A stretch of DNA of 64,000 bases from Flectonema sp. DT1601 (Eukaryota): positions 1,116,001 through 1,180,000 of the forward strand of contig OZ025783.1 in NCBI GenBank assembly GCA_964019425.1, written 5' to 3'. Positions 22,152 to 60,068 of this stretch are shown here, piece by piece. A model generated the notes under the pieces. It ran no database searches and was not told the DNA's origin. It saw only the letters and a list, made by a program, of their open reading frames with translations. The position numbers were made by a program, and so were the translations under genes. Numbering within the stretch: the stretch's first letter is position 1; every line of letters begins with the position of its first letter.

Positions 22152-25100
22152 TTATCTACGCAGCGCTTCTTGTTCTGCTAATCTTTGCTGAAGGACTCGT
22201 TCATCAATTGTGTTGGCGACTATAAATCTGGTTACGAATACTTCTTTCAGTTGACCAAAGCGATGTGCTCTTCCTACTGCTTGTTTCTCTAAGGCTACAT
22301 ATCTGTCTAAGGATGGAGCTAACAGAGGATGAACAAAAACAACATTTCTTGCTTGAGTTAAGTTCAACCCAGAGCTTCCTTCATCTAAAGGTAGTAATAA
22401 TATCTTAACATCTGGCTTTTGGAATGCTTCTATTGCCGACACTTTGTCGTTGTCAAATAAGGTTGAGAACGTTGCCTTGCATCTCCTGAGCTCATCAACT
22501 ATTAAGCTGTGTAGTTCCCGAAACTGAATGAATGCCTGTTTTGTGTTTATTGATATTTTATAATTTACTATTACTATTTAACAACTATACACCAATACAT
22601 ACCAATACTTTCTCATCTTGGTAACTTGCAGTACCAACAATAAAGTGAACTACTTCCTGTATTTTAGTTGGAGTGTTGTCAGGTAAATCTTCTAATTGAG
22701 ATCGCAAGACGATATCAGCGTTCTTGACGAGTGCACTGCATCCCCGGACAGGACATGTATCGGCATTTTCTGCAGAAGATAAAAACTCTGAAGAACATCC
22801 ATAATGTCCACAACATGTTGTAACACAAGGTTCAGATGGTATTGAATCAGTATGAGCAATAGTGTGGACATCACAGATCACATCACTGCGGTGGATGTTG
22901 TGACTTTTTTGCAAGAAACGCAGACTCCGAACTCTAGTCACATATTCTCGAGTACTTGATCGAAGGATGTGAACTTTTTCGTTTAACTCAAATTCAGTTG
23001 GTGTTTTTGTCAACGTCAGTTTAGTCTTTTCAGCTTCTGAAATCCTGGCCTTCAACCAATCTTTAACTTCGATATCTTCACTTGAGGCAGCGTCGTACCA
23101 GTTCTCCATCTTACCCCAGAAGTGTGGGTTTTTTAATTTTAATCGAATTCTGTTTCGCATTTGGGTCGCTTCTTTTAACAAATGAACGACACGCTCTGCG
23201 CATTGTTTCAGTTGAGATTGCCTGATACCCACAATATTCTTGTACGATTGCATTACACTCTTGTCTTCATCGTACAAGTTATATGTACAAGCGAGTTTAA
23301 CGAGAACCTCTTCAGGAGATGATGAGGTTCCCAAAAGTTGTGCAAATCGTTTCTCGCGATCATTTCCATCGCCGTTCCCACTCCAACGCTGGCCGGAATA
23401 TTGGGACACGTCAAGTGATTTAAAGAGAGATTCGAGTTCAGAATATATTGAACTGTGTGTGTGGGACATCCTTACAATTTGAGAATGAAAGCTGATCGGT
23501 AATTCATCAATCTCAGCGATGTTTTGCCTTACAAATATATCAATAAAACTCTGAGCTATAATATTACGATGAGTGTACCAAGCAGAGGATTTGACTCTCG
23601 ACATGGCATGGAATCTCTCAGCATCAGTTAAACTTTTCTTATTAACATTTTCAACAAGAGGCTCACCGATATGAACGCCGAGCAATGTAGCCATTTTTGA
23701 TACGTCGTCAAAGGTTGTCACACAAGGTGTTCCGGATAATAACCATATTCGTTGCCTACGAAGGTTACTTATCACAGCAAGCTGCTCAGTGTTGTCTACA
23801 ATAAAAGAAAACTCGTCAACGATAATTCTTTTCCACAATATCTGTTCTATCTTCATTGCTGCCTTCTCAGCATCTGTCAAGGCCGAGTAAAGAAAAACAA
23901 ACCTTCTTCCCGTAGCGTCAGCAAATTGTGAAGGCATTCTGGATCTAGCAGAGAGTAAAGTTGTTGTTATAAATACGACTGAGACACTGGCCAGTCTGGA
24001 AAGTGATTTCGAGTTTAAGTCTGAAAGAGTCCTTAGAACGATGTAGTCGAGAGTGTTTCCTAAAAACTTACGAAGCTCTTGAGGCCATTGAGATATTAAA
24101 TGAGAAGGTACAACTACCAGAGTTGCTGCACTCTTCACAATTGGATTTGATTCATTCGACGAGGCGATTGATGTGATGCTTTCGGTGTCTTCGTCTGACT
24201 TCGTTGCTGCGATCAGCGCCAAAGAAATTACTGTTTTTCCATATCCAACTTCATCAGCCAACACCCCACCGCACACGATTTTCGGTATGGTAACTCTTCC
24301 TTCGACTAGGATGTTACAAAATAAATCGTTTTCAACTTCCTGCTGTAAGAACGGAATTTGTTTTGAATCTTCTCTTTCAATCATCCACGACAAGGAACGA
24401 AGTTGTTCCTTTCGTAGAGTCTGATCGTCTTTGAATTGTGGTGGTTTTGAGTATTCAGGATTCCCTCTATTTGAGAGAAGCTCTTTAACTGTAAATGGAA
24501 CAAAGCCAGTGCTGGTATCACTAACCCGTAGAGCTCTCCAATCATAATTCATTCTCTGACCATCACATGAAATCATTTTAGAAGAGGAGGTGTGAACTAA
24601 CATTACAGGATTTATATTTACTCTCAGATCACTGTGAGTATCAGATATCCTTCTAAGTTGTGCTGAAACCCCCCTCGGTTTTCTCTTTAGAGCCATTTCA
24701 TATTCTGCAGCCATCTCTCCCGACTCGTATGGGTGTCCTTTTGAAGTCCATTTTATATCAGGTTGAGGTGGAGAGCAGGCAGCACATTCAAACTTTGATG
24801 CGGATGATATATTTTGCCAGTTGGAGAATTCTTGAGGGAACGACATGGAAGCGAGTACCCAACTAATGTCACTCCCAGAGCAGGGAAACCAAAGATCGCT
24901 GTGTGATATTTGATTCACCTGACACTTTGCAATAGTAATTGACAAAGAGCAATTATTATATTCAAGTGTTGGTACCTTCTTGGGTAATGACAGATTATCA
25001 AATGGTGTGATTACTTCTAATGATCCTGGTAGGTCTACGAAACGACCAAGTAGTGTGCATTCAATAATCTCTGATTCTACACTACCAGGTTTCCATCCTT

Positions 25101-28100
25101 GTTTACACAACAATATTGGATCAGTTGGCTCTCCAGCTGACATCCTCGCTGAGTAGCTGTCAGCTATTTCACAGCTGTCATTTTTCGGTTCGCCCATGAT
25201 GTCAGGATTTAGGTATAAAAATGATTCTTTATCGTGTTCAAGGTTGCTGTTATCTCTTTTATACAACATTCCTATTGCAGCACCACATTTAGGAAGCCGT
25301 TGATACACTCCATCAGCTGCCGTCATTTCTCTCTTGTCTCCATTTTTTAACACCAGCGTATTAAATATTGTTCTGTTTGATACTTCAGTTAGACCAAGAG
25401 AGACTTGCCAAGAATCACCAGGATCAGACCCTGACACAGTCATAGCTAATGTGTCATGTACAGGTATTCTTAACTTGATAACTCCATTGGTGTAGTTAAA
25501 CGATGTTGAGTCAGTTGGATAAATACAGTCGACTGTAAGAACAGGTTTCTTATTACCAACAATAGCGAAGAATGGATGTTTGCATGCTTTAGTAGTGTAC
25601 AAAGACCATCTACCAAGAGGATGGTTTTCATTTATTGATAACGTTGCTCGTAAAGAACCCGATTCAGATATGTACGAAGCAGTCCATTTACGAGATCTAA
25701 CAACTCTGACGTAGCGTAAAGGAGATTCTAAATAATGCTGAAGTTCTTTGACGTAGATTTTCCAGTTATCGCAATCAACTCTGGCATTGAAATCCTCATG
25801 GCTATCATCTAACACAAATCTAAATCTCTTTGGTAGTATAGTCAACAACACATCATGTACTACAGAGAAGTCAAGTCTAACTAAATTCTCAATCGGTTCG
25901 AATACGTGTTGTGGATTTCCAGCACATCCAACACAGGAAGTGTAATTACAACTTTTACACTTCACAATTTGATTATTTGATAAAGTCCCACTCTCACAGC
26001 TGCAGTGCATCGCAGCTTTGTGAAATGATAAAAAGTAATCTAATCCTTTATTCTGATTACATGACTCGACATCTTTTATAAAAGTAGATTGAAAGTCTGT
26101 TGGTTCAGTGCTATCGAGTACAGGTAGTTCTGTTCTTCTGTTGATTGGATCACTATTTTTAGTATTTTTAACCGTAAGAGGGAAAGCTGTAAGTATCGAT
26201 GAGATAATACAAGCACCAACAACAGTACTACTCATTGCATTCCCAGCTAAGTCTGCCAGCTGACGATCAGTTTCACGAGTAAGAACCAAATCATCGATTG
26301 GAATCCCTTGTAAGAAAAGTGTTTCCGCTCCGATAATTGGTCCTCCTCTGTTAGAAATGTATGCAATCATAGTTGGAGTGAGACATGGACAGATTCCACG
26401 TGCTGATGAATTCCCTCTATCAACATTCTGTGATAGATTCCATACTCGACATCTCCAATGAGCATCATCAGGATCACTACCATTACCACATCCTAAGTAT
26501 CTCAGATCAATTAAATCATTTACACGATTTGGTTGACCAGCAATCCACTGCTGCCAACTCCAATCAGGTGGTTTGACTCCGCCCTCATTCCAATTTGTGA
26601 CTGGTCGCTTTGGTCCTAATCCTCCAGAATTCCTCTCCTTTGCATGTCGAAGTTCACATCGACCCCAATCAATCTTTTTACGAGCTAACTTTACAGTTAC
26701 TTTATTCTTTGCTTGTAAGACTCGCGGATCATCATCAGGAAGGAGGAAGTGATCGAGTACTGGACCTGAAAACTTTTCTAATGATGCCACCATGTTACCC
26801 CACGCCTGAAGCTTTGATGGAGTTCCATCTAATGCAGCACAAAGATAACCACGTTGACGAGTTTGAGGAATGTAATAATTCTTCGTATCGAGACGTAGAT
26901 ATCCCGCGTGGTATCTCTTACCGCCGGGCAGCTTGAGTTGATTAAAAAGGTTGGCCATTTCATCCCAAGGAGCGCCTCTGACATTCTCAAGGATAACAAT
27001 CTTTGGAGCGTATTTCTTTACGTAGTCGAGCATTCCTTTAAATGTTTGACCCGACTGACCACCTTCATCAATACCTTTTCTGAATTTATTAATGGTACTG
27101 AAATCCTTACAAACAGTTCCTGCAATAACAATATCAACCTGTCCAGGGACGGGTACTGAACTACCGTAAGCGGTGGTTGCCTTTGGATTTGCGAGTTCTC
27201 GAATGTCGCGAAAAAGAAGTTTTGGATGAAAGTTTCTCTCAATATAAGCTTGTTTATAAGGTTCTATTTCACAACTAAACACGTGGTTGAATATATGAAC
27301 ACCAAAAGCCTTCTCAAACATCTTCAGTGCGAGTAAAGGAGACTCGGTACCTGAACACATCGTCGCAACTTCTATCGGTCTTGAAATGCCTTTTAAATTC
27401 CTAATCAATTGAGGGTGAAGTTTTGTTAATTTGGCTGCCATGTCAGAAAACATGTCCTGAGGCTGTGAGATAACATTCTCTAGCAACAGAGGATTGTGTT
27501 TTAGGATTTCTTTTTTTTGAGCTTGAGTCATCTGTGAATTCGGTTTTATAAGTGAGGAACCGACTACTGGTTGCTTCTCTACTTGTTTGTTAGTCTTTTT
27601 TTTAACTTGCTTTTTAACTTGTCTTTTAACCTTTGGTCTGGAATCACTACTACTACTACTGCTATCACTGGTAAACCCACTAATGTAACTGCTAGAGCTA
27701 ACTGTTGAACTGATAGTGCTCCAGTCGTCATAGTTTTTCTTTACGTTTTGTTTTTTAGCTGGTTTTTGTTTTTTAACTGCCGGTCCCTTAGTTGGTGCCT
27801 GCTTTTTCTTCGTTGGTGGTAGAGGCTTCTTCACTAGTTTTGATTTCTTCATTGGTTTCTTAGACACCAACAACTCTACAGAAGAACTTGATATTGAAGA
27901 GGAAGAACTGGAACTATCAGAAGTAGTTTCAGTGGGGCTTTCACTGGTGTCTTCTTCCGATAAGACATTTAGAAGTGCGACACATCCTGACACAGAGCGT
28001 CCAGGAACAACACCAAACCTAACCTTTCCAAAAGGCATATTCGTCTTACTCTTAATTTGATAACAAACATAAGTTGGTTTACCGTCGACCATTATCAGAC

Positions 28101-29115
28101 CACTTAGCATGAATTTAGGTGGTGTTATCACAACAAAACTAACTGGTCGAACACCTCCAATACATCTGGCAATTCGAGGACAGATGATTTCAAAAAGTCC
28201 AGGTGGAGGTTCATATTGTTTCAATTCATCTGAATTCATCGTGTGAGGAATTATCTTTGCAATCTGACTGAGAGATAGCCTAGCTCTAAGTTGATCAATT
28301 TGAGACTGAGTTAATGGAGGAGGACTTTTACAAACATCGTAATCACAACGACAAGCAGCCCATTTTAGTAAAGTAGCGACAGCTCCTACAAAATCTTCAG
28401 AAAACCCTTCCACAGTATTTTGATCTATTACCTCACAGGCAGGTTTTGGAATCGCAGCATCTTTCCAAGCAGATAGTTCTGCTCCCCATTCACCTTGGCG
28501 GTTATTTTTGATGGCAGGTCCGTATTCCATCGCTGATTTATATTCACTTGATACTCGATACCAATTCTTAAAGAGAGATGACTGCACCCATATACCTCCC
28601 CAGGTATCTGTGTGTGGTTGTTGATCAGAAACCTTCCTCACGTGGAATTGAACTGGAGCTGGTTCACCAGGAACAAGCTGACCCATAAAGCAACCCTGAG
28701 CAGTACCACTGACAGTAACACTTTTGTTATTTTGTAGAGCGTCTGATATGGTTGAGTAACCTTCAACAAGAACTCCTTCGATTTTGAACTGAGGATTGAA
28801 GAGATGTCTATTAGGACCTTCCTCACCTACTAATTCAGCTACTGTTTTAGCGTAAGCAATACCAGCGCAGTCTTTACCACATTCATCTAGTAAGCAGAAT
28901 GGATCTGCGTCGCGGAGGATGTCAAGCTGACAGGCATCCTCTTCAGGAACTATTTCCATTAAAAGTTTGATTGCCTCTCTATGAGAATCATCTAGTGCCA
29001 TTGGAACTGGATAGTTCAACCTATCTAGGATCTCAATCAACAGTATCATGCATCCTGTTTGCAGCTGAACTTGTGACTTCAAGTCTGCCGACTCGGTCAT
29101 ATTATCGACCTCCAT
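22152..29115 (-). CDS. DNMT5: DNMT5-type cytosine-5 DNA methyltransferase-SNF2 ATPase; join(22603..29115, 22152..22535)
   Basis: MTase motifs ATMCSGTESP, SCEIEP, IAGTVCKDFS, LENV, PQTRQRGY, LAGNAMS. SNF2 motifs GGVLADEVGYGKT, IVDEF, LLSGTP; RING-like CCGHYGC..CPVRGC. A GTATGT...AAAACAG intron at 22536-22602 joins EKVL|AFIQF to the helicase-C exon (GLNLTQA, QAVGRAHRFGQ). Confidence 0.93.
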
Positions 29116-29383
29116 AAACTAAACAAGATTATAGCTGAACCTGTTATGCAAATAATATTTGTGAAATAGTAACACGGAATTCAGAGTTGATATATTCTTA
29201 CTGGGGGAGTAAGCAAACTTATGAATGAGGGAGAATGGAAGGGGGGAAAAAGAAAAACAATAGCAGGAAAAAAAAAAAAAAAAAAAAAAAACATTAAAAC
29301 AAAATAAAAACACTTGATACCGTAAGACTCCTGATATATATGACAAAACGTGTGAGGAAAAAATAACGAACTACAAGAACGAA

Positions 29384-30478
29384 CTACAAGGCTTTTTTAC
29401 TTCTCTTAATACCTGACATTACAGCAGGTCCTACCTCTTCGGATGCTGTAGGTGCAGGTGCCTTTCTCTTTTCCTTCTTTCCCCGGTGGGCCTTAAAGTT
29501 TCTAGTACCCATGGTAGCTAATTCCTTAGACTGATGACCAACGTGAATAGTTCCCTTAACACCGTGCATGTCTTTTGATATGTTCTTTTCATTCTTCTGA
29601 ACTTGTCCTCTTGGAACCTTACACGCGTGACTGTTGTGTTTTGTTTTGTTTTGTTTTTCGAATGAATCTAAACTAAAAGGATAAATAACTAAACACTCAT
29701 ACCGAAACAGTTGAGGTGTTGCGAGTAAACATCTACGAACATCAAAATCAATATTTGGACCAGCGTCTTCTAATTCAACTTTTGGAATCTTCTCTCCTGA
29801 TTTCTTAAACGCAACGTTGTAATGACGAAATAATATAACAGCATTGTTTATTGTACTTCCATCATCAGATACGGTGATTTCCTTACTCACGTCTTTTGGT
29901 TTGAGGGTTACGGAAATCAAGTGATCAAGACCTCCCAAATGTACCTTAGTGATAACCTGTCCTCTGAAGAAGTCAACTAGTAAGTTTTGAACTCTCTGTA
30001 AAGTTGGGTGAGTTGAAAACATCTCACCCTGGAAATGCATTATAGGTTTACTTCCGACAGCTATACGAGCATCACGCATGGCTTCATATTTAGTAACTCC
30101 CAGTTCTAACATGTCTAATAGTTGGTAATCAAAGTGCCTTCCAAGAGTAATGTTGTGAGGCCTCTTTTGCTTGCTGTGATTTCCAAAACAAAATAACGAG
30201 CAGTCATTTTTAAATGACAAGAATTCTAAATGTTTTGATTCTTCAAATGGTCTGAACTCGTTCTTTTTTGTAAATTTAACTGCGTTGGGTTTCTTCAATA
30301 AAAACAAGTCAGTCATCACATCTTGAGCTACTTGACTGCATTTTTCTCCTTTTAAAAATAAAGCAGATTTCGTGTTTTCTACAAGCTTAGGAAGTACTTT
30401 TTTCAACGCTACTTTTGATCTGTGATTCTTTGGGGCTCCGCGGACGAGACCGCCGGAGGTAGTGTGGCCGCTTACCAT
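29384..30478 (-). CDS. RPF2: Ribosome biogenesis Brix-domain protein RPF2, with a 72-nt in-frame intron at 29631-29702
   Basis: ENTKSALF, LKKPNA, PFEE...LEFLS.KNDCSLF.FG.HSK.KRPHN, DMLELG, VELEDAGP. Removing GTATGA...ACACAACAG deletes a non-homologous stretch (LFR|HACKVP). Confidence 0.92.
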   Translation of the reverse strand: MVSGHTTSGGLVRGAPKNHRSKVALKKVLPKLVENTKSALFLKGEKCSQVAQDVMTDLFLLKKPNAVKFTKKNEFRPFEESKHLEFLSFKNDCSLFCFGNHSKQKRPHNITLGRHFDYQLLDMLELGVTKYEAMRDARIAVGSKPIMHFQGEMFSTHPTLQRVQNLLVDFFRGQVITKVHLGGLDHLISVTLKPKDVSKEITVSDDGSTINNAVILFRHYNVAFKKSGEKIPKVELEDAGPNIDFDVRRCLLATPQLFRYECLVIYPFSLDSFEKQNKTKHNSHACKVPRGQVQKNEKNISKDMHGVKGTIHVGHQSKELATMGTRNFKAHRGKKEKRKAPAPTASEEVGPAVMSGIKRSKKAL

Positions 30479-31162
30479 TATTAATGTGGAGTGGCTGAAA
30501 TAAAAAAAATTACTTGAGAAACTCTGGTGTAGTTCCCAAAAATGAATCGACTTAACTATCGACATACCTGTGACTGAAATAAAAAGAACTACTTTTTTAT
30601 CAACTCAAGAAGTGATTGAATTGTCGGGTGACCCCGTCATTTAATCTCTCTTTTTTTCTTATATCCCTTCTAATGGGCAAAGTGAATGGGGTAACTCAAG
30701 GTATGTACTAAAAGAGTAAATAATTGTTTTACAATCTCGTGTGTTTTTTTTTTTTTTTTTTTTTTCCCCTGTCTGCATCTTGGGGAAATTCTAGTTGCCT
30801 AGCTAAGAACGAGAAAACAGGTTCACTGTGACGGTGTCATCTACCTCAACATGTCGTTATAGTTATTGGTTATTATGACCTCAGTAAATAGATAAAGTAT
30901 TGAGGTAGCAGATAAACTTTTTTTCAAAAATATAATAAATAAATGAAAGTTCCTCAACCTTTCAACTAGTCATAAAGTACTAAAGAGAAATAATAAAATT
31001 AACTTCCGTACAAAGAGACTTGTCAAAAAGGGAAGTGACTTAAAGTATCTATGATTAGGTGAACCTCTGACAACCATACACTTGTTGATTCATTGACTTC
31101 ATACTACTGACTCGGATGTCGTACTTCAGATTGAGAAGAACGAGATGGAGACAACACGAAAT

Positions 31163-31197
<35 letters not shown>

Positions 31198-31482
31198 AAG
31201 TAAAAGAAATGAACAAGTATCACGCGAGCAGTGCAGGGTGGGGATGGGGAAATGACCCACATAACAAGAAACGGAAACGGATAAATTAGAAGAAAAGAAA
31301 AAGGAAATTGTAGCCTCTGCTAAGACAACATGAAATAATGAAACAAAACACCTCTATGCTGTTAATCAATGCACAGGTTCCTAAGCAACACTTTTATTCG
31401 TGTAGTAGGAAGTTACTACACTAAACTGATTCAATTGGTTATAACAATTCGTAGCAAGATTCCAACATGCAACGTTAATTGC

Positions 31483-35940: not shown

Positions 35941-36595
35941 GTTATGAGATGCTATTAGAAAATGATGGATGTTGTTTTTTTTTTTTTTTTTATATTATGC
36001 AAGAAGATGTTTCATAATTCTCTCTTTTTTTTTTTTTGTAGTGCACCTGATTTAAAGTACAATGTCCCTCAACAAAAAGAAAACAATAACACTGCGACAG
36101 CATCGAACATTAGTGCAGAGCTAGGACTGCTTTTTATTAATTATTAGTTTTCTTTTTTTTTTTTTTTTGGATTCTTCTTTTTTTTTTTTTTAAAGTATTC
36201 GTTCTTTAAGTTATAAAAATATTATTTAATGTCATTGGGGGGGAGTAGTATTTTTTTTTTTTTTTCCCCTCCCCCCCTGTGATATCGTATTACTGTAATG
36301 AGCTAAGGTATTATGTGTGAAATAATACTGTCAGAAGTGCCTTTAAGGGTAACGCTAGAAATCGTATTCTTGCTGAGAAGAGTAACTACAGCCATTGTGT
36401 TACTTTTTCAAAAGGATTTCGCGTGCTGTTAACGCCTCCTTTACTTAAAAAAAAAAAAAAAAAAGATAAAAAAAGAAACTCCTCCTTCGCTCGTATATTT
36501 CACAAAAAACAGAAGACTGGAGATGCCAGCTACTGTGAGTCCGGAATGTTGACCGGTGAATATTCCTATTTGCCGTTACAAAAGCATTTCTGATA

Positions 36596-37438: not shown

Positions 37439-37703
37439 TGCATTGTTTAGATAATACTGTGGGTGGGTAAGTTAACTTACTCTAGCACTGATGAGATCTG
37501 ATTAGGTAATCGATTTCCTGTTATTTGAATAGAAGGGATTGTTATAATTATCAAAAATATATAAAATTCAATTGGAAGCTCATGACGCTTGCTGACGAGC
37601 GAAACAATTCCGCGTCGAGTTTCTGAAATAGAATGAAAGTTTTTTTTTGTTTGATTATTCAAAAGAAAACCAAACATGTGAGGGAGGTCTTGAGATAACT
37701 AAT

Positions 37704-44794: not shown

Positions 44795-44994
44795 NNNNNN
44801 NNNNNNNNNNNNNNNNNNNNNNNNNNNNNNNNNNNNNNNNNNNNNNNNNNNNNNNNNNNNNNNNNNNNNNNNNNNNNNNNNNNNNNNNNNNNNNNNNNNN
44901 NNNNNNNNNNNNNNNNNNNNNNNNNNNNNNNNNNNNNNNNNNNNNNNNNNNNNNNNNNNNNNNNNNNNNNNNNNNNNNNNNNNNNNNNNNNNNN
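44795..44994. other. Assembly gap (200 N)
   Basis: Run of N characters; it interrupts the MINDY CDS. Confidence 1.
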
Positions 44995-45890: not shown

Positions 45891-46145
45891 TGTTCTGAGT
45901 GGTGCTCTGATAAGATAGTTATAAATAAATTAGAAATAATCAAAAGAATCAATTGAAAGGACATTCAATTATTATTGACTTCGCCACTAATTAAGATACT
46001 TCGTTACATATTACCTGATTAAAAGAACTGAAATACGAAGTCAGTGACATCTAAAAGACGAACTGCTTGTGATTATGAGTTGCCGCTAAGAGACAAAAAG
46101 AAATACAGAATCAGAACACAGCCGTACTTATATTCGGGAAACACA

Positions 46146-47609: not shown

Positions 47610-47801
47610 GTTGTTACGATTGATATCTGTTTAGTAACTATCTCGTTATTAATTAAAAACAGATTGGAGAACCAGTAAGACAATGACATAATGGTACTGG
47701 ACAAGTACAACAGATAATGTGGTCGCTTATTAGCGAGGAGATCAAAGTTTTTTTTTATTTTAATTTTTTTCTATTTCATTTCCTTTTCAAGTTAAAGTAA
47801 T

Positions 47802-49193: not shown

Positions 49194-51265
49194 GTTGGTT
49201 CATTCAGACCAAGTACCTATTGAGAAGGAAACTTTTTAATGAATTAAGTTAGTTAGGATTAATAACAATAAAGATACCATTCAACGTGTCACAACCTCCC
49301 CTGAGATGTAGTCGATAAGTCTGCGGTGCTTCTTCTACTAATACATAACATCTCCTAGCTGAGTGTTAATAAAAAGAATAAAATTGAGATTTCCCTTTCG
49401 CTGTTCTACTAACGGTGAAACTTGCAGGTCTTAACCACAATGCGGAGGGTGAAGGAAAAGGGAATAAAGAAAAAAACAGAAAGAAGAAACTAGGCGAGAA
49501 GGGTGAAAAGGGGGGAGAGGAGGAATAAAAGAAACTGTAAGCCAGCAAGGGAGATGAATATTGCGCACACAGAAGAGGGTCACGCACTCACAGTACGACA
49601 GACTGAGCTATTTCTGTATGTGAACTGCTTTAAATGTACAACGAAACATAATTCTCAAAAAAGTCAATTTTTTGTTTTTTTATTCCTTTTTCTCCCCCCG
49701 CCTGATTCTTCCCTTTTTTTTTTTTTTTTTTTTGTTTTTTTTTTTTTTTTCCCCCTTCAGTAGGAAATTACTCAGTGAACAAAACAAAAAAATAATAATA
49801 ATAATAATAAGCCCAACAATATGCAGTCTTTAGCAGCAAGAACAGCAGGACTTGATCCATCTCCCTATCTGGCAAATCAAACTAGACGATGGTACTAAGA
49901 AAACAGGTTTTAGCCAACCTGCGCACACTTTATTACTAACAGGTCGTAGAGCAAAGGTAATAAAGAACTAAAAAAAAACCAAAAAAAAATAATAATAATA
50001 ATAAATAAATAAATAAATAAATAAAGACGGCAGATTCACCACCCCATTCCCCGCATCAGCAGACCGAAGATTATATATTTTGCAACTGTGAATTTAGCCA
50101 AAAAAATAATAATAAAATTATAAGGCATTTATCTCACAGTGGAAATACAATGAGAAGTGGTCAAGCTTGAGACCGGTTTCTCATAAGAATAGTAACCACA
50201 CAGCACTTGTGAAGTAAATAAAATAGGTCATCAATAAGTGGATGGAGGTCACCGTTAGTGGAACCACAGATTGCCGACGGCAACTACGGCATACATCTGG
50301 TGCGCGTGCTATCAACTAATGACAAATCCATTTCATTAATTTTCACAAGAAGGTTACAAGTAACGCCGCTGCACGCTGTCTCAGGAGTGAACTAGAAATG
50401 GTGCAGCAATTTCAGTCAGGTGTTCAAAAAGAACTGAACATCACTTGACTGAATTCGACATTATATTTGAGAAGAAGAGAAATGATAATGAATAACCTGT
50501 TGTCCGTGTGCAGCTGGGGTACCGCAATGTCTTTATTAATAGTTTTATTTCATCATTTTTTTTTTTTTTTTTTCCAAAACTTTTTTTTTTCTTGTTTTTT
50601 CGGGGTAGGGATGGAAGGATGGAGAGAGAAAAGGCAAAAAGTACACCCCTCCCAAGTAGTTCTTCGATCATCATGCGTAAAAAAACGTGTTTGCGTTTTT
50701 TTGGAATCATTTTTTTTTTCAAAGGGAGCAAAAAAAATACAGACACGATCAAGGAAGGATATCAAACGGTGCAATAAAAATATTTAAAAAAAAAAGAAAG
50801 TAAAACAACATCCAATGATAAAACGATACTAGGAAATGGTCCACTCCGAAATACATCACGCATCAAACTCAAGAGAATTAGGTACCACTGTGTCGATACT
50901 GCTGCAATGCATGTGGTGATCTGATGACACATTCCCCAATACAGTCAGTTACAGGAATTATTGTCTTCTTTTTTTTTTTTTCCTCAAACAAAAAAATAAA
51001 AACCAAAAAAATAAAAATAAAAAAACGCTAGTACACGAAAGGCCATTCTAACTAAGCAACAGTTAACGAAGGAGGGAATGACATCACATAATAACATGAC
51101 CGTCGGTATCACATCCTTAAGACCAATCGTCGGGCTAAATGCGAAACAACAACAAACCACATCAAGGTAAAGGGCACTACCAATCGGAACTCTTGTGAAA
51201 ATAAAACCAAGAATAAAAATAAAAAAGAAGAAGCAAAAAAACCTAACCCTCCTGTTGGCAATAAG

Positions 51266-51296
<31 letters not shown>

Positions 51297-52163
51297 CCCT
51301 CATCACCGAAACACTTACGCAGTATTCATCACTAACAGATCCCCGGGAGCGATACTCTCCGGGAACCAAACTTGATGCTATGTGAAACGGCAGGATTATG
51401 CGGGAAGACAACAAAAAAAAGAAAACAGCCAACTTACCAAAGGTATTTATCTCTTAAATAAGCACAGCTAATCCCAAATGGAGTTTGAATTGTCAGCCCA
51501 AAAGGAAAAAAAAAAATTAAAAATGAAATAATGACAATATAACGAAACCGCAGAATGCTTGCAAAAAAACTTCCCCCCGGAGTAGCGATGTTCGAGCCCT
51601 GTGGGGGGATTTACCTTGCAGACGCGTGCAGTTCAAAAAGAAAACGGCAAAATGCTTGCAGGAATAACAAATCACTTCAACAATCTGGTTGTTAAGGAAA
51701 TGTACGAAACGTACATTATTAGTAGGGGGGGAAATGTTTCAAAGAAGATAAACGAGAGAGAGGTAAATTGATAAAAGGGTAATAAAGACTGAGGATTTTT
51801 CCTTTTTTTATTCTTTTTAAAAAAAACGATAAATAACTCGCCAAAAAGAAAAATAAAGAGTTTTTTTAAAAAAAAGGCACCCACAAAATGTCCATCCTCT
51901 GCTTTTTCATTTTTTTTTAAATTTTTTTTTTTTTTATTCCTTTGTGTGTTTTTCACAATAACTAATCAAGCTCGGGTATGGAAACGTTGGTCAAAAAAAA
52001 TATCAGCAGAAAGTTTAGCTGTAATTTAAGGCTTGATTCGGCATCTATCAAAGAACTATTCATATCAAGTAAGAATTCACCACATGACGATGATTCATAA
52101 TTGCTTAACCAACATGGTTCCTCGGATTTTTCTCAAGGTGAAAAACATCTTTTATATTCAACT

Positions 52164-52985
52164 TTAGAACTTGACGCCGTATCCGAGTTCAGCCCCTCCA
52201 GACTGAACGTGATCTACTCCGGTTGTAAAGGTCATGTCAGCAGCTATTGCGAGGCAGAGTCTTCCAGTTTCTTCAATTGTTCCCTTTCTAGCCATGTGCT
52301 GTACCTTGTCACCAGCCTTAGCAGCTTCTTCAGGGTTTTCTTCTTTATCAGTAAATGATTTCCACAAAGGGGTCCAGATGTTACCTGGTGAAACAATGTT
52401 AACTCTAACGTTCTTCTGAGCTTCATCGATAGCAAGAGCCTTTGAGAACGAGGTGATGGCTCCCTTTGTCGCGGCGTAAGTAGGAGCTCTATCTTGACCG
52501 ATAATACCAACGAGTGAGGACATGTTAATAATATTTCCTTCAACCTTACGAAGGTGCGGAAGAGAGTGCTTACAAGCGATAAAGTACGACAAGAAGTTAA
52601 GCTGAAAGAGGGAGCTCATTTCCTCAGCAGTGAAGTCATCTAAAGTCTTGTGAGGCGGATGCCAACCAGCGTTGTTAATGAGACAGTCGAGTCTTCCGAA
52701 AGTTTTGACCGTTTGATCGATCATCGAAGTTATCTCATCAGCTTTTGATACATCACATTTAATAAAGAATGCTTTGTTAGGGTATCCATTGCTGTTTAAG
52801 TCTTCTTCGAATTTCTTTCCTTCTTCGACAGCTCTAGAGCAGAAGGCAACGTGAGCACCTGCCTCAAAGAAAACTCTTACGCATCCTTCACCAATTCCCT
52901 TCGTTCCTCCAGTGACAAGAACTACTTTATCGACATAGCGACCTTTAAGACCAGTTGGTACTTGAACAACGTTGTTAGAAGACAT
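52164..52985 (-). CDS. HSD17B14: Short-chain dehydrogenase/reductase, HSD17B14-like
   Basis: TGGTKGIG, NNAGWHPP, YAATKG, VSPGNIWTPLW and C-terminal SGGAELGYG, all typical of the HSD17B14 group. Confidence 0.85.
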   Translation of the reverse strand: MSSNNVVQVPTGLKGRYVDKVVLVTGGTKGIGEGCVRVFFEAGAHVAFCSRAVEEGKKFEEDLNSNGYPNKAFFIKCDVSKADEITSMIDQTVKTFGRLDCLINNAGWHPPHKTLDDFTAEEMSSLFQLNFLSYFIACKHSLPHLRKVEGNIINMSSLVGIIGQDRAPTYAATKGAITSFSKALAIDEAQKNVRVNIVSPGNIWTPLWKSFTDKEENPEEAAKAGDKVQHMARKGTIEETGRLCLAIAADMTFTTGVDHVQSGGAELGYGVKF

Positions 52986-54042
52986 GATGAGGGAGATAAT
53001 AAGTTGTTGTTTACAATGAAATGCTGTTGAAGAAAAAAAAAAGTAAATAAAAGAAAAAATACTACAACGAAAAGAAGGGAAAAAAAGAACGAAAAAAAAA
53101 ACATTAAAAACGAGTACTAAAGACGTGTCAATCTGATACTTTTTTTTTTTTTTTTAAAAATGCCAGGAAAAAACCACATGCATTATTTTTCCCATTAAAA
53201 TGGCTTTTTCAAAATATTGTAAAAAAATACATAAAAAAAAACTGGGAAATCATTTGAATTTCCTCATCAAAAGAAGTTTAAAAAAACAGAACACAAACTC
53301 AATTAATGAGCTCTTTTTCCATCTCATAGAATCAGAATAAAAATACATTCTTCATGAAGATTGCTGTCATTTTCTTTAACATAAATACAGTTAACAAACT
53401 GCGGGGAAAATTACTTTGGAGTGGGAAGAAAAAAAAAAAAAGAAAAAAAATTGAAATTGAAATACAAAAACAAACAATCAGTCCCTCGAGCCAGCAACCT
53501 TATCAAATATCTGGGAGACAGTAAAGCGATCACCGAAGAGCAAAAACGCAATTAGTGATAAATGGCTATACAAGATAAGAAACAGTATCGAAGTGCTGCT
53601 TCCTTTTTCGGAGATCTTTCAGTTTTTATAAAAACCACGAAACAGAAACAATTTGTGGCCCACATTCGTTGAAGAAAAGAAATGTTTTTGTACTTCAATC
53701 ATTAAACAGAATTAAAAAGTAATCAAAAGCACAAAATGGACGAAACACAAAATGAGATAACAGCGGCAGACGCGTGTCGTCGAGGACACACTGGGAAGCT
53801 TCATCAAATGAACATGAAAGTAGGAAGAGATTTCCACATTGCAATATATTATTTTAGGTTGATTCAATCCATTCCTCCAACTATGAGTGAAGCAAATATA
53901 AAAAGGGGATGATAGGAAAACCCAAACCGAATACTCACAAACTTTTTTTTCGAAAGAAAAACTATCATTCTTGTCTACGCTTGATGAATATTAAATAACC
54001 AAACCTGAATACTACAACTATTTTAATTTATAATATTTACTA

Positions 54043-55716
54043 TCAAACACCAAGAGGTTGTTCCCTGTTATCAGACTGAGGAGGTTGCTGTCCAGGTTTC
54101 TGTTTCTGCTGTTGTTGTAACTGCTGAACAGACATGCGGGTAGGGCTGCTTTCAATGGCTCTCAGAAGTCTGGGATCTTCCCGACCCCATCCGTCAACTC
54201 GTAAGTCGGGAATATTATTTCTTATTAATGAAACTACTAATTTAAGATTATCGACTGCTGGAGCATAAGTACCAGAATTATTATCCATCACAAGAACAGG
54301 AGTAGCCCCATCATAGTGAATATGAAACTCTCCCGCGTACCTCACAGTCTTTGATGCACTTGAATGGAAGGCATGCTTAGACGCAAAGTCTTGTAAAAAC
54401 GATGATCCGGTGTGACAAAAATTCCAAGTCCCGTCATCTCTGATTACGTATGTAAAGAATATAACTTGTCCATTACTAAGTCCTTCGTTTATGATATGAA
54501 AGAAGTCTCTAGCACATCTAATAGGAATCTTTTCAGCAGACACAGCAGCTGAAAACAATACTTTGTGCTGTGTCCGAATAGCTAGTCTGACTGCCTTTCC
54601 CTTTATGCCAGAGTCGAAGATTGTCTTTGCTGCTGAATATTCTTTGTTCCAATGTTGGTGCACTTCACCAAATATTTGGTCTACATCTGCCAGTTTCATT
54701 TGATAAATCATCAAAGCTGTTCTATACTGTCCACCAGATGATAATTGTATTGCTGACCCAGTCATAGAATTCGATACAATTCTACAGACCAAACCTTTCT
54801 TATTTTGACCGGATGCTGGCGCTGTCGTCGGTGCAGCTACCGGTGCTGTCGTCGGTGCGGCTGTTGGATTCCCAGCTGTGGGGTATTTATTTCCAGAAGG
54901 CACTCCTTGCGGTGCAACTGCTGTTGGAATTGCTGCAGCAGGGTATGCGTTCGCCTGATGAGTTGGATTCCCAGCATTCGGATAGTTAGGCTGCGACGGC
55001 TGAGAGACTCCCATCGGATTTCCTGCAGCTGGGTAAGAATTCGCCGGCGGCTGGGCGACACTCGTCGGATTCACTGCTGCTGGGTAAGGATTACCATATT
55101 GTTGAGGTTGTCCAGTGTACGGATTAGATTGAGCTGGAGGAGGATTCCCTGCAGTAATTGGATTAATGACAGGTTGATTTGATCTCTGAAGATAATCATT
55201 ATCGAGTGAAACTACTTGAGATGGTGATGAGTACCCACCTCTAAATGGTTCAGGTGTCATTCCTGTTCCCCATTGTCCTGTTGGAATACCTTGTGGAGGG
55301 TAACCTGGTAGTTGACCATGATGAGGATACGACTGTGGAGGATTCTGATAATGAGTTGCTGGATGCCCAGCTTGAGGATAAGTATTATTTGTTATGTTTG
55401 GATACATTGCAGGAGCAGGAGCACACTGAGTGTGTGAAGGGACACCACTCGGAGGTTGCGTTAGATATGCCGATTGCGGTAAGCCAGTAGCGTGGCCTTG
55501 ATCAGGATATCCACCAGCCATTGCAGACGGTTGCTGATTTGGAACCTCTCCAACTGGTGCCGGCAGGCAGGCAGGCGCTGCCTGCGGTTGCTGACTAACC
55601 TGCTGAGCCTGTTCCAAAGCTTCCATCGTTGGAGCACTTGGTGTCGGCATCACGTTCTCCTGTTGCGGATGTTGCTGATGCTCCCCCTGCTCCGGTTGCA
55701 GTCCTTCGGCACCCAT
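54043..55716 (-). CDS. Pro/Gln-rich protein with a conserved uncharacterised C-terminal domain (FTYVI...SKH..HS...AGEF...DNNSGTYAP)
   Basis: Long ORF; first ATG at 55716; repeated YPxAxNP units followed by a globular C-terminal domain. Confidence 0.8.
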   Translation of the reverse strand: MGAEGLQPEQGEHQQHPQQENVMPTPSAPTMEALEQAQQVSQQPQAAPACLPAPVGEVPNQQPSAMAGGYPDQGHATGLPQSAYLTQPPSGVPSHTQCAPAPAMYPNITNNTYPQAGHPATHYQNPPQSYPHHGQLPGYPPQGIPTGQWGTGMTPEPFRGGYSSPSQVVSLDNDYLQRSNQPVINPITAGNPPPAQSNPYTGQPQQYGNPYPAAVNPTSVAQPPANSYPAAGNPMGVSQPSQPNYPNAGNPTHQANAYPAAAIPTAVAPQGVPSGNKYPTAGNPTAAPTTAPVAAPTTAPASGQNKKGLVCRIVSNSMTGSAIQLSSGGQYRTALMIYQMKLADVDQIFGEVHQHWNKEYSAAKTIFDSGIKGKAVRLAIRTQHKVLFSAAVSAEKIPIRCARDFFHIINEGLSNGQVIFFTYVIRDDGTWNFCHTGSSFLQDFASKHAFHSSASKTVRYAGEFHIHYDGATPVLVMDNNSGTYAPAVDNLKLVVSLIRNNIPDLRVDGWGREDPRLLRAIESSPTRMSVQQLQQQQKQKPGQQPPQSDNREQPLGV

Positions 55717-56452
55717 TTTATTACTCACCCAAGTAGGCACTGATAAGTGTGTTGTAATGTTATCAATTAAAAGTAATATTCAAAACCATCAGAACGACAG
55801 ACTGATCGCTCTTTACAATTAGAAAGCAATCATATCAACAACAACGACAACATGTAGTAAACTGAAAAAGAACTAACATAAGATCATAATCAAAACAAAA
55901 TATTAAATCGCATGTGTGGAAAAGCATTCACTCTGTTGATGCAGTGCGATTTATTCCACTGCTGTATTCACCTCACAGGTATGAGGTGATAAGTGTATCG
56001 AAGAAGATATATTGAAAAGAAACAAGACAACCAGCTAAATAATCCATTGGGGAAAAAGGACAACAATAATATAAAATAAAGAAAGGAACTCTTTCATAAA
56101 AAAAGTTAACACGCCAACTGTTGTTTGTATATTAGGTAAGTGTGTACACCACACCTCTACCCCATCAGATGCAATAGTAGTTGGATGCCTCATTCTACTG
56201 AAATAGTGTTGTGATTATTATTTTTTTTTTTTTTTTTTTTTTAATATATCCCAACAACAATCTATTGGAGGATTCATAAATCAACCTGCGCTCAGCAAAG
56301 AGCAACTACTTGCTGGCCACAAGTAAACACATAAAAAGGGGTGTTGTAAACAAAGAACAAGAAATAACCAACTAAAGCCAAACGCGGCAAGAAATAAAAA
56401 TTAATCTGCGAAGCAAAAGAAAAGGAGAGGGCACACGGTAGTTAATATTTCA

Positions 56453-57136
56453 TCATGGTCGGTAAGCATTCGAAAGTTTAACTACTTCATTCGGAGCAGA
56501 ATATCCTCCTTGTTGAGTTTGTGTATGAGACTGTGCAGGGTGAGCTCCCATTGAACCAATCGAGTCCCCGTAGGAGGGTGCCCAAGAAGGGCTTTGAGAA
56601 TTATTATTTTGAGGATACGCACTCGGAAAATAAGATGACTGTGGATACTGAGCTGTAGGACATCCTTGACTTTGATTCATAACTTGTGGCGAAGGATATG
56701 CGCGTGGAGGTGTCCACTGCTGCTGCTGCTGCTGCTGCTGGGGCGGGTACTGTTGTTGCTGGGGCGGGTACTGTTGCTGTTGTTGCTGAGGCGGGTACTG
56801 TTGTTGTTGTTGTTGGTGAGGCGGGTACTGTTGTTGCTGTTGTTGCTGGGGCGGGTACTGTTGTTGCTGTTGTTGCTGGGGCGGGTACTGCCCCGCTGGA
56901 GGGTATCCATATGCTGGTTGCTGTGGAGCAACTTGAGCTGTTGCAGGAACACTATTCTGAGTATATGGGTTCGCAGTTGCTGTTGCTGTTGCTGTGGCTG
57001 TTGCTGTTGCTGCTGCTGGTGAATAATTACCACCACCGCCACCTACACCACCACCACCACCTACACCAGGAGGTACCACTTGCGACAGCGTTGGTGCTGT
57101 TGGTTGCGGCAGCTGATCTTGTTCACCCCAACCCAT
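56453..57136 (-). CDS. Pro/Gln/Tyr-rich protein resembling the N-terminus of the neighbouring gene
   Basis: 227 aa; YPPQQQ repeats; PTAPT and GGYSAPNEVVKLSNAY parallel PSAPT and GGYSSPSQVVSLDNDY in 54043-55716. Confidence 0.7.
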   Translation of the reverse strand: MGWGEQDQLPQPTAPTLSQVVPPGVGGGGGVGGGGGNYSPAAATATATATATATANPYTQNSVPATAQVAPQQPAYGYPPAGQYPPQQQQQQQYPPQQQQQQQYPPHQQQQQQYPPQQQQQQYPPQQQQYPPQQQQQQQQWTPPRAYPSPQVMNQSQGCPTAQYPQSSYFPSAYPQNNNSQSPSWAPSYGDSIGSMGAHPAQSHTQTQQGGYSAPNEVVKLSNAYRP

Positions 57137-58516
57137 GTTTGTAACTACGAGAAAGTCTTAATCCTGTTGAATATTTAAACATTTATAAAACATCACTAAT
57201 GCACATGAACCCAACAGTAGAAGAACTTCATCACCTCTGAATGTGTCTACAAATCATTTTATTACTTTACCTGTTGTCAGAATAGAATTAAATTAACACG
57301 TCTGTCAGTTGCTATTAATTTGATTGGGTTCAGGTCTTCCTTTTTTTGTTGGTGTTTCCGCATGGCTGTCGTCTTATTTTATTCTGCTTAATCTTCAAAA
57401 ATTAAAAAAAAAAGGGGAGAAAAAAAGAGAAAAAAAAAGACACAAAGAACTCCACAGAAATCCTGACTGGAAAAGAGGGCGAAACAAGAATTGTTACGGC
57501 AAACATCCCTCCAAGCAAGATTTCTTTATACATTCTATGTTATGTAAATTGATGTTGTACATCTTCGCTGTTCCGTTAACACATCCCTTTTGGCGAGCGT
57601 GTTACGACGCATTGATCTGCGCAAAGGCGCTCGAAAAGGAATTTAGGTAAAGGCTTAGTGGTGTATGTTGTACCTTTTTTCTAAAGTAAATAATGACCTC
57701 ACAGTGAGAAAAGGTCATCGTTGGCTGAACAAAACAAACATCATTACAATAAACTACAGCAGTCACTAGAAGAAGAAGAAAAAAAAAGTAAAAAAAATAA
57801 ATAAGTTTACAATTAGTAATCTGGCAAGGCTGTGTTGCCTAACATTCATTTTTTTTTTTTTTTTTTTTTTTTCTTAAAAACCCTCAATCAAAGAGAGTTG
57901 TTCGATAAAAGAAATAAAACACATAAACGGTGACCAAACGTAGAAAGTACTGTTGACGATTATTTTAACACCGTGTTAGATAATACACGAGTATTGGTTG
58001 ATGAATGTAACAAACAATATGTTTTCCAATTTAGTATCCTTTCGTTGGTTTAAAAATAATTTATAAGTTAAAACATTAGTTTATTATAGAAAAAAAAGAA
58101 AAGAAAAAAGTTATAAAAACACATTGTTCTGCTGTTCCATAAAACACTGGAATACGTAGTTTCAGGCCTTAATCTTATACTACTTGTCCCTCTTTAGGAC
58201 TTCATCAGTAAGTTCTGAGGGACGTCATTCCAGTAAATTAATAAATCAGATTTATCAAAATGTCTATTTCAAAAGAAGAATTTTTATAAGTTAAAATATA
58301 CTCAAAAAAAAAAAAAAAAAGGTTCGAGAAGAGAAAAAAAAAAGGGGGGAAAACACGTGCAAACCAGTACTTAATACAGCATTGAGGTGGATAACAACGA
58401 CTGAAGAAGGGGAAAATAGGGAACTCACTCAACAACCGACTGAAGGAAGCCGAGTATTATTATTATTTTATTGGAAATCCTCACGTCATTTTAAACAGCC
58501 ATATATAGCAAACCTC

Positions 58517-60068
58517 TTAAGCTCTCTTGGTATCGTCTTTCCTCTTTGGAATTAGTTGGCAAAGAATAAACACTCCGAGAGCAATGAAATGAGGGGCGTA
58601 GTACACCGAACTCCATCCCTGTTTTTTTGTTTGTATTTTTATTTTCCCTTTTTACAATATCTGAATACCTAAACATATGCTACAAATTGATTTCAATAAA
58701 ATTAATAACACAAACCGTAAGGGTGTAGTCCCAATCTAAAACAATAAACGGAAGACCGACGTAGTTCACAGAAACAGTCGTACAAAGAATACCAATCAGG
58801 TCGTAGAACATCTTTGCAGTTGATCCAGCAGCAATGAAGTACGGACGAAGTTTTGTTCTCGAATTACGAGCAACAATTGTTAGAAGAGAAGCACTAGTAA
58901 AGAATAAATAATATCCAGGATAGAACCCATGCCAGAATGCTGAGTACAATTGTGTAAGCAATACTGGTAGTTGGGAACGTTCTCCAAGAACAGATGTGAG
59001 ACGGAAATAGACAACATTCTTAAGCCAGTGACCAACACCCATATTCCAGTTATCAGTTACTCCCTTAACATTCTGAGAGAGTTCAACAGCGAAGTAGTTT
59101 CCGTTTGAACATCCGCTCCAATCATTGCCTTCAGAGTCGACGGACCTGTCAAACATGGAATTGTACAACGAAGACTTAGCACCCTTCTCTGCCTTACCAG
59201 TGTATCCAAAGCCTGATAGGATACAGGCAGAATGAGCTAGATACCAAACAACAAAATACTTAGTACGAGCGAGTAAGATACAAAGCCAGATGTAAATTAA
59301 TCTCTGAACAGGATGAAAGCTATCCAAACCTCCATTATAAATAGCATCAGCTGGGAATAATGGAGCAACAACCTTGTTGAGAGCAATAATAACGAGCGCT
59401 CCTAAGAACTTCCAAAACGCAGCGAGGTATGAACCCGCAGGGGTTGGTTTATCTCCTGAGATCCAAGCTTTGTATGATTTCCAAGTAAAACAAGGTCCTG
59501 GCATGTAACAAGGGTAGAATAATACAAATGAATAGAACTCGAATATCGAAGGAACATCTTCCTTTGGAACCGCATCACGTTCGTTGTCACTCTTCGGGTG
59601 AAATGTTTTTACTTTACGACAACCATCAGCGATGTTGAATGCGAGTAATTGCAATTTCACAGTTAAGATCATTTGAACAGATGTGTAATCCATATGCCAT
59701 ACAAGGTACTCATACCAATATGCGTATATGTGAGATGCTGAGAGATACAAGAATGTCCATCCAAGAACAAAGTGCGGCATCACATCATTAGGAAGAGTTC
59801 TCATCATAATGTAAGATACTAAACTCGTCACGAAAGGATGAATTGAGTCTTCTCTGCAAACTGCTAAACTAAAGATGACTCCCCAAAATATTGAAAACAG
59901 GTGTCTGACTGAACCATGAGGAAGACATCTGTGAATAATTACCAGAGGGAATGATCCAAAAACAGTACACAGAAATCTAACCTGATCAACTTCCATACCA
60001 ACTTTTTCAGCCAGCCCATTAAACAATAAGGCATCCCACCCAAGAGGATCTTCTAGGTATATTTTCAT
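58517..60068 (-). CDS. MBOAT lysophospholipid acyltransferase (ALE1/LPCAT-like); join(58716..60068, 58517..58618)
   Basis: QMILTVKL, KYFVVW, WN....WLKNVVY, SAFWHGFYPGYY. Intron 58619-58715 joins YTLT|GWSSVYYAPH. Confidence 0.92.

Follow-up and report, generated by a model that had tools for sequence, protein, structure and literature searches.

A/C-rich acceptors of coding-region introns and U-richer AGs before start codons in a one-strand gene cluster of a Flectonema diplonemid

Why should introns inside coding regions end in A and C, with no polypyrimidine tract, in a cell whose transcripts probably receive a spliced leader? The question arises from a window of 64,000 nucleotides of Flectonema sp. 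DT1601 (contig OZ025783.1; coordinates below are those of the window). In both protein trees the host is a diplonemid (Diplonemidae), sister to Flectonema neradi (support 99/97 and 100/99). All 20 gene models lie on the minus strand in one cluster of 53 kb (11024..63929), with stop-to-ATG spacers of 192 to 2970 nt, as in euglenozoan polycistronic transcription with spliced-leader trans-splicing. Fifteen models have Pfam hits, one has a Flectonema homologue, and four are long open reading frames (ORFs) only; a Pfam search with 14 plus-strand ORFs produced no match, and Rfam at gathering threshold gave 0 matches across the window. The polycistronic trans-splicing setting presumed in the first-pass annotation of this DNA fits such a host and cluster, with the leader extrapolated from D. 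papillatum, where it is found on essentially all mRNAs (PMC10161547).

That annotation had also listed eight acceptor motifs, each of which occurs once, on the minus strand, with its AG ending where it had been placed. According to our analysis, they close eight coding-region introns in six genes, all with GT-AG boundaries and all restoring the reading frame upon excision; the donor is GTATG in six and the acceptor CAG in seven. Homologues back seven of the eight junctions, five of them gap-free against F. neradi transcriptome proteins (P0007 for RPF2, P0033 for both introns of the TBC1D5-like gene, and P0042 for both of an unnamed diplonemid gene). A DNMT5-like methylase-SNF2 gene has a 67-nt intron close to its 3' end (22602..22536, GTATG..CAG, acceptor A+C 0.85), and the exons of this gene map in order onto residues 2002-2109 and then 2143-2268 of PDB 7r76. 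The RPF2 intron (29702..29631, 72 nt, GTATG..CAG, A+C 1.0) is in-frame and stop-free, and the database ORF P0002 continues across it. Seven metagenome RPF2 loci (38-56% identity) were set aside: for four the top score was against a fish protein, and the other three scored much the same against several euglenozoan proteins. The TBC1D5-like gene has a first intron of 68 nt (34450..34383, GTATG..CAG, A+C 0.70) and a last one of 2743 nt (34285..31543, GTGTG..CAG, A+C 0.95), which contains a snoRNA-like repeat array. The unnamed gene is interrupted at codon 32 (37341..37256, 86 nt, GTATG..CAG), by the only coding intron close to a 5' end and the one with the lowest A+C (0.65), and again at 36743..36665 (79 nt, GTATG..TAG, A+C 0.80). 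The GlnRS intron near the 3' end (39720..39606, 115 nt, GTATG..CAG), with an A-run acceptor of A+C 0.95, is called from frame only, and a U-rich TAG, also in frame, precedes its acceptor by 37 nt and stands 78 nt from its donor. Searches with the last GlnRS exon, which we take to resemble the C-terminal tail of eukaryotic CysRS, yielded no usable homologue. The intron near the 3' end of the MBOAT gene (58715..58619, 97 nt, GTTTG..CAG, A+C 0.90) has a junction gap-free against 4/4 homologues among the matches listed, Sulcionema P0044 included, with the best of six donors tried. Within their ORFs, six of the eight introns fall in the last 10% and seven in the last quarter.

Over positions -23 to -4, the eight acceptors consist of A (0.67), C (0.18), and T (0.15), with no G among 160 nt. 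Their A+C of 0.85 compares with 0.47 for 419 intergenic YAGs (Mann-Whitney p=3e-6), a mean that 0 of 200,000 resamples reached, and the excess persists when 163 AG-free background sites serve as the reference (p=4e-6). The first-pass annotation was right both on the A/C-rich coding acceptors and on the U-rich sense strand of intergenic DNA (T 0.37, A 0.29). The signal is limited to the last ~30 nt of the introns, the 5' parts of which are 48% T. No polypyrimidine tract precedes the coding AGs (C+T 0.33, longest pyrimidine run 1-4 nt), AG-free zones are 21-70 nt long, and a YTRAY branch motif is present in 4/8 introns at variable positions from -44 to -11.

Acceptors of this type might have arisen by lineage-wide drift under a relaxed spliceosome that needs a G-poor, AG-free zone and ACAG, which we regard as improbable; equally improbable to us is the associated account of the A/C bias by mutation bias and A-run slippage, unlinked to trans-splicing. 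The AG-free zones of 21-70 nt agree with drift, as do the low G and A-rich CAG ends found at coding and ATG-proximal acceptors alike, the frequency of long A runs in the non-coding DNA of the window, and the species-dependent composition of the tract among diplonemids, C-rich or A-rich, in PMC12621601. However, intergenic sense DNA and the 5' parts of introns are T-rich, so that a G-free zone filled neutrally would be expected to become rich in U; at the AG-free background sites T is 0.43 and A+C 0.45. Drift also leaves the difference from ATG-proximal AGs unexplained. Another reading, that the A/C-rich 3' end pairs with a G/U-rich 5' end as in euglenozoan non-conventional introns, seems to us highly improbable. 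The introns are polarised, T/G-rich at the 5' end and A/C-rich at the 3' end, end-to-end stems are predicted in the SNF2 and MBOAT introns, and one of the seven short introns has a more favourable fold than its shuffled versions (z -2.7), but at four lengths pairing is no stronger between cognate ends than between swapped ones (P=0.48-0.74), and the combined z is -1.3 with whole shuffles and -1.0 with half shuffles. Identity with euglenozoan non-conventional structured introns was rejected, since the ends are GT-AG in 8/8 and show no specific end-to-end pairing, and so was a metamonad-type fused branch point-3' splice site, since no common motif was found beyond the A-rich CAG. The fused sites of Giardia, Trichomonas, and Spironucleus are likewise A/C-rich directly before the AG, but they follow a fixed 12-13-nt consensus at fixed spacing (PMC6679479), whereas the acceptors in this window show only a bias in composition.

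The A-rich acceptor type itself is not new. It is in print for Diplonema japonicum, where the 'polypyrimidine tract' at intron acceptors is A-rich, and the same study reports CA/CAC-rich intron motifs in Rhynchopus humris and Lacrimia lanifica (Thakur et al. 2025, PMC12621601). The host shares with D. japonicum, also of the Diplonemidae, GT-AG introns, GTATG donors, CAG ends, and A as the most frequent base ahead of the AG, but its lineage is instead sister to F. neradi and its short introns measure 67-115 nt against a median of 41 nt. The main text of that study mentions neither Flectonema nor outrons nor a spliced leader, and it does not compare coding acceptors with leader sites or 5'UTR introns. 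The recurrence of CA/CAC motifs and A-rich tracts in other diplonemids would also be expected if the A/C tract were a positive cis-splicing signal, read by a diverged U2AF2/SF1 or a CA-binding protein or serving as a source of branch adenosines, with U tracts reserved for the leader. We consider this unlikely, although the signal is sharp and local in 8/8 coding introns, the U-rich in-frame TAG of GlnRS is seemingly skipped for the A-run acceptor (at a junction supported by frame only), and a read-through peptide in the diplonemid protein P0037, at an orthologous intron, implies C or A at 13/14 fixed bases before the inferred AG. Against it, there is no fixed motif or spacing, as the scatter of YTRAY illustrates, and U2AF1/2 is present in D. 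japonicum; U1 and U2 snRNAs and U2AF are reported for related diplonemids. The five candidate 5'UTR introns described below also count against it, as their acceptors are U-rich although their donors and lengths resemble those of the coding introns.

The acceptors upstream of ATGs had been called mostly U-rich in the first-pass annotation. We examined the ATG side in 19 of the 20 genes, leaving out one of two near-identical cyclin genes. With four mechanical rules for choosing the ATG-proximal AG, T was 0.44-0.46 against 0.36 in the background (p 0.007-0.06), with A+C at 0.46-0.48, and under all four rules T exceeded that of coding acceptors (~0.45 against 0.15, p 0.0004-0.0007). A fifth, low-G rule gave T of at least 0.45 in 11/19 of these candidate leader sites and A+C of at least 0.65 in 5/19, which bears the claim out in part; these five overlap the coding range, being as A/C-rich as the weakest coding acceptor. 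A T run of at least 6 lies within 30 nt in only 4/19. Both classes are low in G (0.07-0.08 on the ATG side against 0.17 in the background) and have the A-rich CAG end, with A at -5/-4. The difference is a gradient with overlap, with about threefold more U on the ATG side.

In 5/19 genes, a YAG/GTA donor lies 61-108 nt upstream of the U-rich ATG-proximal acceptor, so that these U-rich AGs may serve 5'UTR introns in cis. The candidates, all on the minus strand and all with U-rich acceptors, are 17088..17148 in a kinase gene (61 nt), 30495..30567 in RPF2 (73 nt), 41784..41852 in GlnRS (69 nt, with an alternative TAG at 41801), 45907..46014 in a MINDY gene (108 nt), and 57164..57270 (107 nt), the donor of which directly follows an acceptor-like ACAACAG. 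In RPF2, the acceptor lies 16 nt before the ATG at 30478, which is confirmed by homologues; 30495 had been put forward as an example of a U-rich acceptor upstream of an ATG, but a perfect CAG/GTATGT donor lies 73 nt upstream, so that it is possibly cis. A second U-rich CAG is found at 30574, and its use together with the candidate intron would leave a 6-nt exon. GTA follows YAG at 5/48 sites located 50-150 nt above ATGs and at 6/337 elsewhere (p=0.006), a pattern picked after inspection and one of six tried, three of which were enriched and three not. When GT, GTR, and GTA donors were binned by their distance above the ATG-proximal AGs, 1/27 bins had p<0.05, and these broader donor classes showed no overall enrichment at a set spacing; enrichment was confined to patterns of the YAG/GTA type. 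The acceptors below the YAG/GTA donors have T 0.58 against 0.15 at coding acceptors (p=0.004), and therefore cis-splicing may not need A/C.

A sequence code that cleanly separates cis from trans acceptors, as originally proposed, finds no support here: the classes overlap in 5/19 genes, and 5/19 have U-rich acceptors below candidate donors. Moreover, 4/8 coding introns contain U-rich YAGs (T at least 0.5, G at most 0.15), in one case at 78 nt from the donor, and the coding exons of 19 coding sequences are not depleted of them (22 observed against 23.5 in synonymous shuffles). In favour of U-rich acceptors being avoided in coding introns, 0/42 YAGs within the 2.7-kb intron are U-rich and G-poor against 64/419 in intergenic DNA, although its repeat copies are non-independent. 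Coding sequences are depleted of T runs of at least 6 (3 against 9.7), but this is matched by a depletion of A runs (18 against 28.9) and therefore points to general homopolymer avoidance. Long A runs are common in the non-coding DNA of the window. Judged from composition and candidate donors, the split looks like one between the coding region and the 5' end rather than strictly between cis and trans.

Our tentative reading, to which we give not quite an even chance, is that these are ordinary GT-AG introns, A/C-rich and G-free over their last ~25 bases, which are U-poor in order to avoid mid-gene addition of the spliced leader, as U-rich acceptors would likely attract the leader and cut the mRNA. 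The polycistronic pre-mRNA would receive the leader as in D. papillatum; a strong GTATG donor would let cis-splicing proceed without a U tract, and leader addition, having no donor, would depend on one. Leader capture with coupled upstream polyadenylation would be harmful within a coding region and harmless in a 5'UTR, and for that reason selection would favour U-poor acceptors in coding introns and leave 5'UTR introns with U-rich, possibly dual-use ones. As a cause of U-poor coding acceptors, avoidance of leader capture is plausible. In trypanosomatids, SL-exon2 isoforms make leader capture at cis acceptors a real hazard (PMC11613528), and in T. brucei U tracts shorter than 9 nt support trans-splicing poorly, and splicing dictates where polyadenylation occurs upstream (PMC9639853). 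A counterpoint is the A+C of the one coding intron near a 5' end, the lowest of the eight.

With seven of eight coding introns in the last quarter of the ORF, position is confounded with acceptor class. Instead of the cis or coding nature of the intron, composition might follow nearness to the gene 3' end, through 3'-end processing coupled to the next leader site or through terminal-intron definition, which we think distinctly unlikely. The six introns within the final 10% of the ORF, the minimum A+C of 0.65 in the sole 5' intron, and the coupling of polyadenylation to splicing in T. brucei (PMC9639853) speak for it, but it depends on that single 5' intron, and for D. japonicum the genome-wide logo, which is A-rich, combines 10,131 introns without a split by position in the main text (PMC12621601). 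Leader avoidance could also be elaborated into a two-tier code, which we consider doubtful, with U-rich, leader-competent acceptors confined to 5' ends and U-free A/C coding acceptors invisible to the trans-spliceosome and to polyadenylation. The leader would then join a 0-13-nt micro-exon, or directly a YAG/GTA ratchet site, the leader-bearing micro-exon would be cis-spliced to the AG ~16 nt before the start codon, and coding introns would cluster at the 3' ends of ORFs.

That trans acceptors are U-richer than cis acceptors is already published for Schistosoma mansoni, where they also have longer pyrimidine tracts and the difference was proposed to steer the choice between cis and trans (PMC5832876). 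There, the contrast is one of degree of U and tract length, whereas here the coding acceptors are 67% A without a pyrimidine tract and the leader sites are only putative. Euglena gracilis, a euglenozoan like the host, combines cis- and trans-splicing with a non-U (C-rich) tract, but its cis introns and outrons have one tract type and no cis/trans contrast (PMC11170887). In Ciona, trans-splicing is controlled by donor strength (PMC11155486), and in flatworm 5'UTRs acceptors are shared between cis- and trans-splicing (PMC12582326); both set a precedent for the dual use suspected at the five donor-bearing sites, although in those animals the choice goes with the strength of the donor and the composition of the outron and involves no A/C acceptor. 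Term searches of PMC6053224, PMC13598402, and bioRxiv 10.64898/2026.07.29.740908 returned nothing on acceptor composition.

How cells with universal leader addition and many cis introns shield their internal acceptors has been little studied. The trypanosomatids, a sister group that also adds a leader, are nearly intronless and tolerate its capture; their introns, in only three genes (PAP1, RBP20, and DBP2B), retain polypyrimidine tracts, and their cis acceptors are captured (PMC11613528). If the large gap between coding and 5'-end acceptors is true of diplonemids, it would give a function to their published but unexplained A-rich tract and would improve gene prediction in this abundant marine group.

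According to our analysis, the eight acceptor motifs named in the first-pass annotation are all minus-strand, each ending at the coordinate assigned to it (22536 to 58619), and the same holds for its U-rich example at 30495. The eight motifs are the 3' ends of GT-AG introns, and splicing these out brings the reading frame back in every case (8/8); the short introns measure 67 to 115 nt. Five junctions, in RPF2, the TBC1D5-like gene (two) and an unnamed diplonemid gene (two), are bridged without a gap in alignments with Flectonema neradi proteins taken from its transcriptome, with identities of 233/286, 418/548 and 165/232, respectively. The MBOAT junction is free of gaps against the four displayed homologues; of six donors tried, the one assigned to it had the top score. 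The SNF2 gene (22155-29115, minus strand) encodes a DNMT5-like protein of 2293 aa with C5 DNA methylase, RING and SNF2 domains, and both of its exons are placed in order on its top PDB match, 7r76. The GlnRS junction (gene at 39452-41771, minus strand) is based on the reading frame only, with an alternative in-frame TAG 37 nt upstream; the last exon encodes a C-terminal extension, for which homologue searches yielded nothing usable and which presumably resembles the tail of eukaryotic CysRS.

At positions -23 to -4 the eight coding acceptors contain A 0.67, C 0.18 and T 0.15, with no G in 160 positions. Their A+C content exceeds the mean of 0.47 at 419 intergenic sense-strand YAG sites (p=3e-6), was reached in none of 200,000 resamplings of intergenic YAGs, and stands also against 163 AG-free background sites (p=4e-6), bearing out the claim that coding-region introns carry A/C-rich acceptors; sense-strand intergenic DNA is indeed U-rich (37% T). 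In their 5' portions the eight introns are 48% T, and the bias weakens upstream of about -33; A/C richness is a local property of the acceptors rather than a strand bias. Drift of the acceptors, with a G-free zone maintained, is deemed quite improbable. Pairing between intron ends is very improbable, since cognate ends pair no more strongly than swapped ones.

Intron position along the ORF confounds this composition: six of the eight coding introns fall within the final 10% of the ORF (binomial p=2e-5; by gene 5/6, p=6e-5), and the lone 5' coding intron has the lowest A/C content of the eight. That the composition is a 3'-end effect seems fairly improbable to us. Introns of intron-poor genomes are biased to the 5' end, opposite to the bias seen here, on which nothing was found in the literature searched. 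Very long first exons often precede the 3'-placed coding introns (22536-58715, minus strand; 6.5 kb in the SNF2 gene), and an assembly gap of 200 N (44795-44994) truncates the MINDY gene at its 3' end, hiding any terminal intron.

Upstream of start codons, of which four were confirmed by homology and the remainder taken as the first in-frame ATG, CAG is in excess at 10 to 30 nt (13 in 380 positions, where the background rate is 0.011), with a second excess at 75 to 100 nt (13 in 474 positions). Four mechanical rules for choosing ATG-proximal AGs give T 0.44-0.46, A+C 0.46-0.48 and G 0.07-0.08, which sets these sites apart from coding acceptors (p 1e-4 to 7e-4) but leaves only a modest gap in T to background (p 0.007-0.06); an A-rich -5/-4 is common to both acceptor sets. 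Under a fifth, lowest-G rule, T is at least 0.45 at 11 of 19 sites, partly in keeping with the proposal that these acceptors are mostly U-rich, but five of the 19 have A+C of at least 0.65. The contrast is real yet graded.

The 30495 site, upstream of RPF2, has a CAG/GTATGT donor 73 nt upstream that attains the maximum possible score under a matrix of the eight coding donors; another U-rich CAG lies six bases upstream of that donor. YAG followed by GTA occurs at 5/48 sites 50 to 150 nt upstream of ATGs versus 6/337 elsewhere (p=0.006), the pattern having been selected post-inspection; of six patterns tried, three showed enrichment, and looser donor patterns showed none. The candidate 5'UTR introns, at 61 to 108 nt, are similar in length to the short coding introns and end in U-rich acceptors (T 0.58 versus 0.15 in coding acceptors, p=0.004). 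If they are real, cis-splicing would not need an A/C tract, and the dividing line would run between coding region and 5' end. A positive role of the A/C tract in cis-splicing is an unlikely alternative. A clean code separating cis from trans acceptors is not supported: coding and ATG-proximal sites do contrast significantly, but the proposal's own U-rich example, 30495, has a strong candidate donor upstream. The five candidate donors each abut an acceptor-like YAG (at 17149, 30568, 41853, 46015 and 57271, minus strand) that has T 0.35-0.55 on its upstream side and is preceded in four of five by another CAG 6 to 13 nt ahead; these abutting YAGs possibly mark micro-exons or ratchet sites just after leader addition.

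Two protein trees place the window's species as sister to F. neradi (support 99/97 and 100/99); its RPF2 is 81% identical to that of F. neradi and 72% to that of Diplonema papillatum, and its TBC1D5 only 49% to that of D. japonicum. Twenty gene models form a one-strand cluster (11024 to 63929, minus strand; 15 Pfam matches, one Flectonema homologue, four long ORFs only), and 29 additional ORFs, 14 on the plus strand, gave no Pfam match. Stop-to-ATG spacers are 192 to 265 nt in 4 of 19 measured and 268 nt in a fifth. Since comparable clusters occur in D. papillatum, where essentially every mRNA carries a leader (PMC10161547), we infer leader addition here. Two cyclin genes, nearly identical and flanked by duplicated sequence, lie at 11024-14208 (minus strand); window positions 1-11000 hold diverged, duplicated, non-coding segments, with no Pfam-positive ORF among those tested. 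An intronless GH64 beta-1,3-glucanase-like gene (37707-38783, minus strand) might be of transferred origin.

RPF2 adjoins TBC1D5 (29387-35940), the D. papillatum homologues carry near-adjacent accession numbers and lie on a contig of equal length, and the database ORFs P0005, P0036 and P0037 seem to extend into introns at matching positions, which suggests conserved synteny and intron positions. The read-through peptide of the diplonemid protein P0037 fixes 14 bases at the orthologous TBC1D5 intron, 13 of them C or A, suggesting a C/A-rich acceptor at an inferred position. The 2743-nt TBC1D5 intron holds a tandem array (31619-34199, minus strand) that repeats every ~178 nt. A hairpin core and a 3' arm with AGA box occur 11 times each (z -3.5), with a weak, sub-threshold Rfam match to snR5 (E 0.23), and a unit in which C- and D-box-like motifs stand 63 nt apart occurs three times; the array is likely an intron-hosted snoRNA cluster.

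A-rich acceptors are already published for relatives: A is the commonest base of the tract in D. japonicum, which has U2AF1/2, the preference is weaker in Lacrimia and Rhynchopus, and CA/CAC-rich motifs and GTATG donors are also reported (Thakur et al. 2025, PMC12621601). Neither the literature searched nor the main text of PMC12621601 yielded a comparison between diplonemid acceptors of coding introns and those of leader sites or 5'UTRs, although its supplements or Additional file 1 of PMC10161547 may contain one.

Avoidance of leader capture, recast as coding region versus 5' end, is tentatively our best reading of the U-poor coding acceptors, falling just short of being probable. A strong donor would allow cis-splicing in the absence of a U tract, whereas leader addition, being donor-less, likely depends on U, since splicing in Trypanosoma brucei, which also determines the poly(A) site upstream, is inefficient when the U tract is below 9 nt (PMC9639853). 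Leader capture is documented at cis acceptors of trypanosomatids (PMC11613528), and leader acceptors of Schistosoma are richer in U than cis acceptors (PMC5832876). Against capture avoidance, U-rich YAGs remain inside four of the eight coding introns and are not depleted in coding exons (22 versus 23.5), long U runs are scarce even among 5' sites, and in Euglena a single tract type serves introns and outrons (PMC11170887). The A/C-rich acceptor is a genuine feature, of a kind already known and now seen in a new lineage; its contrast with 5'-end acceptors is statistically clear at the sequence level, and its suggested function is testable.
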